From a virus: a stretch of DNA of 64,000 nucleotides. Position 1 is the stretch's first letter. Each line of letters begins with the position of its first letter. Position numbers and translations under genes: made by a program. Shown here piece after piece: positions 148-1,726 of the stretch. Under the pieces are notes generated by a model that had not been told where the DNA came from, did no database searches, and was given only the letters and a program-made list of their open reading frames with translations. The stretch covers positions 1-64,000 of IMG/VR virus record IMGVR_UViG_3300025508_000006. One strand, 5' to 3'.

Positions 148-175
148 TTGACAACCAGCACCAGTATGTTATAAT
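148..175 (+). promoter_or_regulatory. sigma70-type early promoter
   Basis: TTGACA-16 nt-TATAAT with extended -10 TG, intergenic. Confidence 0.75.
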
Positions 176-207: not shown

Positions 208-504
208 ATGAAGTCATTTAAGACACATCTCGAAGAATCCGCCAAAGTAAAGTGGATTAAAGTTGCTGACGGATACGCGAATAAAAAGATGGTGTACAAA
301 CACGTAACTTCTGATCGTATGTATGAAATACGTTTATCTGGTGCTGATTCTATGAAATTTAATAAAGATGGCAGTCAGAAAGTGTTGCCTACAGTCTTTG
401 ATAAGCATCCAGCAACATATAGTCCAAGATATCCTGTTACCGGATATAAGAATGTTGCTACAGCGAAAGCAGAAGTTGAGAGATGGATTGCCGATCATGA
501 ATAA
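208..504 (+). CDS. hypothetical protein with capsid-targeting-like N-terminus
   Basis: Starts MKSFKTHLEE, resembling T4 internal-protein signals (MKTYQEFIAE / MKTFKEF). Confidence 0.7.
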   Translation: MKSFKTHLEESAKVKWIKVADGYANKKMVYKHVTSDRMYEIRLSGADSMKFNKDGSQKVLPTVFDKHPATYSPRYPVTGYKNVATAKAEVERWIADHE

Positions 505-1726
505 TTTTAACGAGTTCATTACAGAAGCGGCACAAAAGAACACCCATATGACTCACATCGAAGATAAGGTGATCTACGGTGGTGCTGATGGAACTCGTCA
601 AGCAATCAATGCTCTTCGTGAGTTAAGAGATATGCTTGGCGGTAAGAAAGAAGGTTCTGTATCAGTCAAGTGGGACGGTGCACCAGCAGTATTTGCCGGT
701 ACTGATCCCTCTGACGGTAAGTTCTTTGTTGCTAAGAAAGGCATCTTCAATAAGAATCCAAAGATATACAAGACTGATGCTGACATCGATGACGATACGT
801 CTGGCGATCTCAATGACAAACTAAAACTTGCATTGAAGTATTTACCTGAACTTGGTATTAAAGGAGTCATTCAAGGTGACTTTCTATACAAGCGTTCTGA
901 ATTAAAGAAGAAGAAGATCGGCACAGAATCGTATCTCACCTTTCACCCTAACACAATCGTGTATGCAGTACCCGTAAAACAATCTAAAGAACTACTTGCT
1001 TCTAAAATCGGCATTGTATGGCACACTACATATACAGGTAGTTCTTTTGAAACTATGAGCGCATCATACGGTGTTGATGTAAACAAACTGAAGAAGTCAA
1101 CTAATGTCTGGTCACAGGACGCTATCTTGCGTGATGTGTCTAATGCAACGATGACTAAAAAAGAAACGGATGAAGTAAATGAAACTCTATCACAAATTGG
1201 CAAACTTTTTAACCAAATCTCTGGAAGCACTCTTCGCGTATTATCCGCCAACCCAGGACTTGCAGGTACTATCGAAACCTTTAATAACACCTACGTTAGA
1301 CGAGGAGAAGTCATCGGAGACTCCAAAAAGCACGCCGAAAAACTCATCGCCTACATCAACCAAAAGTACCAAAAAGAAATCGACAAGCGTAGCACCGAAA
1401 AAGGCAAAGGCGCCCAAAAAGCGAAGCGCGACGAAATCCTCAAGTTCTTCAGCAAAGAAAACAAAATAAGTCTCATTAAGATGTTTGAATTGCAGAAATT
1501 GATTGTTTTAGTTAAATTAAAACTTATAAATAACCTTAATAGATTAAGTAATATTGGTGCGTTTGTTAAAACTAAGAACGGATACAAGACTACTGGTCAA
1601 GAAGGTTATGTTGCAATAGACACACTTGGTGGTGATGCGGTGAAACTAGTTGATCGTATGGAGTTTTCATACAACAACTTTTCACCTGATATATTAAAAG
1701 GATGGGATAAACCAAAGGGTAAATAA
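497..1726 (+). CDS. putative ligase-fold (RNA ligase-like) nucleotidyltransferase, DUF6267-like, with capsid-targeting-like N-terminus
   Basis: Likely start ATG 497 (MNNFNEFITE). Motifs SVKWDG (KxDG), IQGDF, EGYV and AVKLV occur in ligase order. Confidence 0.6.
   Translation: MNNFNEFITEAAQKNTHMTHIEDKVIYGGADGTRQAINALRELRDMLGGKKEGSVSVKWDGAPAVFAGTDPSDGKFFVAKKGIFNKNPKIYKTDADIDDDTSGDLNDKLKLALKYLPELGIKGVIQGDFLYKRSELKKKKIGTESYLTFHPNTIVYAVPVKQSKELLASKIGIVWHTTYTGSSFETMSASYGVDVNKLKKSTNVWSQDAILRDVSNATMTKKETDEVNETLSQIGKLFNQISGSTLRVLSANPGLAGTIETFNNTYVRRGEVIGDSKKHAEKLIAYINQKYQKEIDKRSTEKGKGAQKAKRDEILKFFSKENKISLIKMFELQKLIVLVKLKLINNLNRLSNIGAFVKTKNGYKTTGQEGYVAIDTLGGDAVKLVDRMEFSYNNFSPDILKGWDKPKGK
1179..1469 (+). 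CDS. candidate overprinted Lys/Ser/Pro/Thr-rich basic protein (+1 frame inside 497..1726)
   Basis: 96-codon ORF coinciding with a strong shift of the host gene's third positions to C/A that reverts at its stop. Confidence 0.5.
   Translation: MKLYHKLANFLTKSLEALFAYYPPTQDLQVLSKPLITPTLDEEKSSETPKSTPKNSSPTSTKSTKKKSTSVAPKKAKAPKKRSATKSSSSSAKKTK
1525..1532 (+). promoter_or_regulatory. T4-type late promoter
   Basis: TATAAATA about 200 nt upstream of ORF 1728. Confidence 0.55.

Follow-up and report, generated by a model that had tools for sequence, protein, structure and literature searches.

Why should a phage gene whose third codon positions are otherwise rich in T give up T at those positions for part of its length, and return to it directly after a stop codon in another frame? 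The gene in question (497-1726, plus strand) lies in a 64-kb stretch of DNA, here called the window, which is part of a 116-kb viral record and whose sequence is also present in freshwater and aquatic metagenomes. The initial annotation ascribed the shift to a real basic gene nested in the +1 frame, and the survey of relatives described below supports that proposal, since conservation extends to the frame, its start and stop and its composition, and a basic product is predicted. With a probability of roughly 80%, the sequence comparisons indicate that positions 1179-1469 are a real protein-coding gene, which arose when the +1 frame of the surrounding DUF6267 gene was overprinted.

The host gene and its codon-position shift

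The host gene encodes a protein of 409 aa that matches Pfam DUF6267 (E 3e-103) and PHROG 455 and carries a KWDG motif. At least 594 relatives were found among viral contigs, and the closest cultured relative is Phage C48C1 (Kyanoviridae-classified), with 68% host-protein identity. The AlphaFold model of the host protein consists of an alpha/beta domain followed by helices at residues 221-352. A sequence search of the PDB gave no significant match for this fold and Foldseek none at E<=0.001, with T4 Rnl1 and other RNA ligases appearing only in insignificant rows, while a wide VIA-align search returned only generic helical bundles (Z<=7.2). The assignment as a ligase is therefore based on motifs alone, and the host protein is called ligase-like here in that sense only. 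The nested ORF overlaps host residues 228-324, a helical, Lys/Glu-rich stretch that is also the section with the highest non-synonymous diversity of the host protein; overprinting would be expected to be tolerated in such a place.

The ORF itself (plus strand, 96 codons) runs from an ATG at 1179 to a TAA at 1467-1469, wholly inside the host gene and with an in-frame TAA directly upstream (1176-1178). As it lies in the +1 frame, the third position of each host codon is the second position of an ORF codon. Over 1295-1466 the host third positions comprise 21 A, 28 C, 6 G and only 2 T, which gives a C/(C+T) of 0.93 compared with 0.31 in the remaining gene; the value across 56 crude genes of the window is 0.30. 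The 57 codons from 1298 (1298-1468), with a single T and 28 C at the third position, are the most extreme of 14,890 such segments in the 64 kb (mean T count 21.8, sd 4.5; next lowest 8), and T-rich third positions resume immediately past the TAA. The shift first noticed by eye is thus far beyond chance. Its end at 1467-1469 agrees with the initial annotation, while the onset, placed there at about 1270, has to be moved to about 1247 as judged from relatives. The ORF divides into a part without C bias (1179-1244, residues 1-22, predicted to form an N-terminal amphipathic helix) and a part in which host third positions are almost all C or A (1245-1466), encoding a polycationic tail that is predicted to be disordered, with much Ser, Thr, Pro and Lys and a net charge of +13.

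The DUF6267 gene was also observed to contain an AT-rich tract (1470-1560, GC 0.17-0.22) directly after the C-rich overlap. This tract encodes the host segment LIVLVKLKLINNLN and holds a T4-type late promoter word, TATAAATA, at 1525-1532, which is 56 nt past the nested stop and about 200 nt ahead of the next gene (1728). The word was found just six times in the 64 kb, every copy on the plus strand, and its context AAACTTATAAATA is conserved in 58 of 62 homologues, synonymous positions included. This putative promoter is a second signal embedded in the DUF6267 gene.

Relatives with and without the nested frame

Homologues of the host gene with 69-100% protein identity were recovered at 80 loci in a scan of viral contigs. 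Twenty of these carry the nested ORF and a profile of the nested peptide added 11 further carriers, so that in 31 other contigs, close to moderately distant, the +1 ORF is intact, spans 80-102 codons and occupies the same place; the open frame in homologues that the initial annotation asked for is thus present. Most carriers are only about 70-80% identical in the host protein, and their synonymous sites are saturated, the exceptions being the near-identical L003 and L086; no indels interrupt the host-protein alignment in the overlap. One near-identical relative, which differs from the window at 34 of 1230 nt, retains the ORF, and none of these differences falls within 1316-1469. About 46 equally related homologues have neither the bias nor the open frame, and the cultured phages Phage C48C1, Melnitz and HTVC008M all lack the nested ORF. 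Given the host protein and the codon usage of each lineage, the probability of a +1 frame staying open for at least 87 codons is 0.001-0.06 per lineage.

The bias was compared between 16 non-identical carriers and 46 non-identical ORF-less homologues, which are related sequences and not independent trials. The carriers have a C/(C+T) at the host third position of 0.88-0.98 over 1247-1426 and of 0.14-0.25 after 1487, compared with 0.2-0.45 in the ORF-less homologues, whose +1 frame contains one to seven stops. The C bias in itself removes +1 stops, so that within the tail the open frame does not count as evidence independent of the bias.

This dependence is what would be expected if the C/A-rich, T-poor tract were a nucleic-acid element, such as an R-loop or origin, an unstructured mRNA or a codon-optimality ramp, with the open frame as its by-product. 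The antisense frames of the tract are open too, and the conserved late promoter lies 56 nt downstream, as might suit such an element. The strongest single result of this study, however, is a test anchored on the stop of each lineage. The +1 stops of the carriers fall at six positions (equivalent to 1421, 1430, 1442, 1469, 1475 and 1478 of the window), and when the sequences are anchored on their own stop, the host third positions show 117 C and 5 T in the 15 codons before it but 22 C and 57 T in the 12 codons that follow. Although the stop varies over 57 nt, in every lineage the bias ends at the stop of that lineage, which argues that it tracks a reading frame and not a fixed DNA tract. Moreover, A is kept at third positions and only T, which would give a hydrophobic second position in the ORF, has been purged, and the 23 unbiased N-terminal codons are open in all 16 carriers, with ATG and Shine-Dalgarno (SD) site conserved. 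A nucleic-acid element is consequently considered quite improbable.

The same stops bear on two other sources of the bias, namely an antisense ORF (codon-aligned, 1241-1417) and, as raised in the initial annotation, a segment recombined from a donor with other codon usage. The codon-aligned antisense frame is indeed open for 70-101 codons in the carriers, as follows from an opposite strand poor in A. Yet it has no conserved ATG and its ends are variable, and several of the +1 stops that terminate the bias (GTA+A/G, ATA+A, CTG+A) are not stops in antisense. Exchanging NNC and NNT would there produce conservative swaps (V/I, D/N, A/T) that would hardly be purged 20:1, whereas in the +1 frame the exchange is one of polar against hydrophobic residues. 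A foreign donor fares no better: G at third positions is not raised, Lys, Glu and Gln retain their A-ending codons, and the host protein is conserved and collinear without indels, so that, together with the ending of the bias at each lineage's own stop, recombination is an unlikely source of it. Either of these origins would be the least probable of all the explanations considered here.

The substitution pattern was examined for signs of selection. At identical host residues, third-position diversity is 0.234 in the overlap compared with 0.478 upstream and 0.504 in the ORF-less homologues; the reduced synonymous variability foreseen at the outset is therefore real, amounting to a halving. Divergence that is synonymous in the host and non-synonymous in the ORF (dSN) is 0.57 in the overlap versus 2.26 upstream, that is, about four times lower, and is saturated in the ORF-less homologues. 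The dNN/dNS of the tail in an OLGenie-style analysis, 0.73 (0.54-0.99), is not clearly below that of controls (0.87), suggesting that selection acts on composition, namely the absence of hydrophobic residues, and not on the exact sequence. Such compositional selection is as expected for a disordered polycation, and bears on how de novo proteins become useful.

In a host-protein tree from which the overlap columns were excluded, carriers are interspersed with ORF-less sequences whose bias is intermediate (0.4-0.6). Several of the latter (L012/L028, L035 and L041/L045) have a bias of 0.55-0.59 and peptide remnants broken by stops, which looks like recent loss and decay. Across the relatives the comparison shows frame, start, stop and composition conserved together, and decaying where the frame has been lost. 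A single clade of carriers is not rejected by the AU test (p=0.09), so the number of independent losses is uncertain.

Other +1 ORFs were noted in the same gene. A sister clade (L061, L065-L068, L074-L076) has an 87-codon ORF and another set (L049, L051, L052, L063) an 83-codon ORF, both starting from the same ATG with a weaker C bias or none. These versions, the sequences of which are closely similar to one another, could be older or degenerating forms of the nested gene. In L013, L022 and L031 the N-terminal half of the host gene holds a different, hydrophobic +1 ORF of 86 codons (equivalent to about 560-820); its counterpart in the window has 62 codons (636-824). As no bias accompanies it, this ORF is probably due to chance.

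Start signals and probable internal initiation

The weak upstream SD site mentioned in the initial annotation was found as GGAT at 1168-1171, of which only GGA (1168-1170) is SD-like, with a spacer of 8 nt to the ATG. Most relatives are better equipped, with GGAG or AGGAG at this site. A GGAG, GAGG or AGGA word lies 5-16 nt upstream in 13 of the 16 carriers but in only eight of the 46 ORF-less homologues; among the 11 additional contigs, ten have GGAG or AGGAG 6-7 nt ahead of the ATG. The near-identical L086 has GGAT, as the window does. The ATG, which derives from a host Asn-Glu pair (AAT G..), is at the shared position in 15 of the 16 carriers versus 17 of the 46 ORF-less homologues, and the sixteenth carrier starts at an ATG 6-9 nt upstream. 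The first 23 codons, in which there is no bias to keep them open, are free of stops in 16/16 carriers versus 23/46 ORF-less homologues.

These signals also bear on programmed ribosomal frameshifting, by which a truncated DUF6267 N-terminal domain would be fused to the basic tail and no separate 96-aa protein would be made. The onset of the bias some 70 nt past the ATG and the weak SD of this phage would suit such a mechanism. In most carriers, however, a +1 stop immediately precedes the ATG and the open frame begins exactly there, which favours internal initiation over frameshifting; SD words are conserved at the right spacing, and no conserved slippery site was seen on reading 1230-1260. Frameshifting is accordingly rated as very improbable.

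The start might, alternatively, be an accident. The host residues T-E-E-V-N-E could by chance provide an SD and an ATG, giving rise to a functionless product that selection merely keeps harmless, i.e. hydrophilic and non-aggregating. That the constraint is compositional and not sequence-specific would fit this suggestion, as would the origin of ATG and SD in conserved host residues and their presence in some ORF-less homologues. One substitution that is synonymous in the host (AAT to AAC, or the creation of an early +1 stop) would nevertheless suffice to remove the product, and many relatives have made it; yet in many lineages 80-102 codons remain open and strongly basic. A harmless by-product is hence regarded as improbable, and a functional nested gene remains the reading preferred here.

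We infer that the nested frame is translated. The mRNA carrying host and nested genes probably starts at a sigma-70-type promoter upstream of the gene row (148-175, plus strand; TTGACA-16-TATAAT with a TG extension, 12 of 12 matches), and ribosomes would start internally on it at the ATG at 1179. Contigs covering 437-2300 or parts of it, with no or one difference, occur in four metatranscriptome libraries, an observation that indicates presence only, as such contigs reveal no strand, end or translation and DNA carry-over is possible. The overprinting itself would have arisen in one lineage of uncultured freshwater or aquatic T4-like myoviruses. Selection would then exclude hydrophobic residues from the disordered tail of about 74 residues, and their exclusion forces C or A at the host third positions, producing the codon-position shift.

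The predicted product and its known counterparts

The nested product would be a protein of 96 aa with a pI of about 11. When modelled by AlphaFold together with 17 relatives, it forms a helix at residues 2-21 (pLDDT 82-87), the remainder being coil. Over residues 1-14 the hydrophobic moment is 0.45-0.77, apart from L032 (0.31), which starts at a different ATG, and the mean hydrophobicity is near zero, indicating that the N-terminal segment is amphipathic and not membrane-spanning. The net charge of the tail is +12 to +23 in the relatives; most of them have 0-4 hydrophobic residues in it, and this phage has seven.

No match to the nested protein was found in Pfam or PHROGs, nor by tblastn against 50,697 cultured phage records, and its best ESM Atlas score (0.80) is at the level of shuffled sequences. 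Nested same-strand genes are never reported by gene callers, and a profile search of 5.8 billion protein clusters recovered none at E<=0.001 despite some 30 carrier contigs. Two classes of lysis-related proteins were considered and rejected: an o-spanin or lipoprotein of the Rz1 type, as there is no conserved Cys, and a transmembrane lysis protein of the phiX174 E type, as the maximum 19-residue Kyte-Doolittle mean is below 0.8.

Judging from composition alone, the translated product would be a polycation that binds DNA or RNA non-specifically through its Lys-rich tail, in the manner of a histone H1 tail or of the Lys-rich internal proteins of the T4 head, and the N-terminal helix may serve self-association or oligomerisation, or targeting. 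Binding to DNA or membrane had been suggested in the initial annotation. The tail resembles the C-terminal tail of histone H1 and bacterial nucleoid proteins rich in Lys, Ala and Pro, such as Hc1 and the tail of mycobacterial HupB, in being rich in Lys, Ser, Thr, Pro and Ala, highly positive and predicted to be disordered. Unlike these proteins, it has neither homology to them nor a globular DNA-binding domain, and [ST]P.[KR] motifs number only 0-2 per protein, with none in the window's copy. The label of histone-tail-like given in the initial annotation is thus apt for composition, but does not extend to homology or to SPKK-type repeats, which are few. If the protein does condense or coat DNA, the small basic proteins of phages would gain a new class, found in T4-like viruses of freshwater.

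The neighbourhood invites a comparison with the T4 head. Six plus-strand genes of the window, starting at 208, 497, 2189, 5587, 8847 and 16175, begin with a leader like the capsid-targeting sequence of T4 (M..F..[FYHL][ILMV].E), and none does so on the minus strand. The six include a cytidylyltransferase-like gene and the DUF6267 host, whose N-terminus, MNNFNEFITE, resembles the T4 sequence. These genes suggest a block of packaged or ejected proteins; the promoter at 148-175 precedes the first of them (208-504), in which case the leader-tagged genes would be expressed early too. The gene that follows the host (1728-2192) encodes a very basic, Lys/Arg-rich protein of 154 aa (PHROG 23027, a family of unknown function), the start of which is partly leader-like, making its product another candidate for a DNA-contacting internal protein.

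In the T4 internal proteins IPI-III, Lys residues contact the packaged DNA (Rao and Black 2010, PMC3012670). The nested product is likewise small and basic, and its N-terminus fits a relaxed leader pattern (M..[FY]..[FYHLM][ILMVA]), one that is matched by 9 of 512 plus-strand ATG ORFs, of which five are true leader genes. Unlike IPI-III, it has no Glu at the protease cleavage position, so that the full leader with the cleavage Glu (M-x-x-[FY]-x-x-[FYHLM]-[ILMV]-x-E) is not matched, and no conserved (L/I)xE site follows. The nested N-terminus is also largely dictated by the conserved host frame. It is conceivable, though unlikely, that the nested gene encodes a de novo "phage protamine", a polycationic internal head protein whose helix would mimic the capsid-targeting leader of the host gene and its neighbours, and which would enter the head along with the DNA, offset the charge of its phosphates and pass into the host cell on injection. 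Were this analogy to hold, the de novo origin of a virion or ejection protein within the gene of another ejection protein could be traced.

Small phage genes nested in the +1 frame of another gene and read from an internal start of their own include T4 30.3' in 30.3, lambda Rz1 in Rz and phiX174 E in D. The first of these has reportedly been described as overprinted within gene 30.3 (Zajanckauskaite et al. 1997, Gene 194:157). Rz1 is a lipoprotein carrying a lipobox Cys, and a transmembrane helix is present in E. In contrast to both, the nested product described here has neither feature, and its host is the ligase-like DUF6267 gene. The present gene is a new, orphan case of a known phenomenon, overprinting, in large freshwater T4-like phages. 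For a large dsDNA phage it is also an unusually clean natural example of a gene being born by overprinting, in that both frames, older and younger, can be compared along with carriers, non-carriers and intermediates in decay, and the codon-position shift is a signature that can be read from one genome.

Overprinted, or de novo, overlapping genes of viruses have been reviewed (Pavesi 2021, PMC8227390; Sabath et al. 2012, PMC3494269). The present case shares with those genes a young ORF contained entirely in an older gene that is read in a different frame, a phylogenetic range that does not reach as far as the host gene's, an orphan product and a reduction of synonymous change in the host frame. 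Unlike the typical examples, it is found in a large (over 116 kb) T4-like dsDNA phage, and not in one of the small genomes that are pressed for space. It further departs from them in a constraint that is almost purely compositional, and in repeated loss with a decaying bias that is visible among its relatives.
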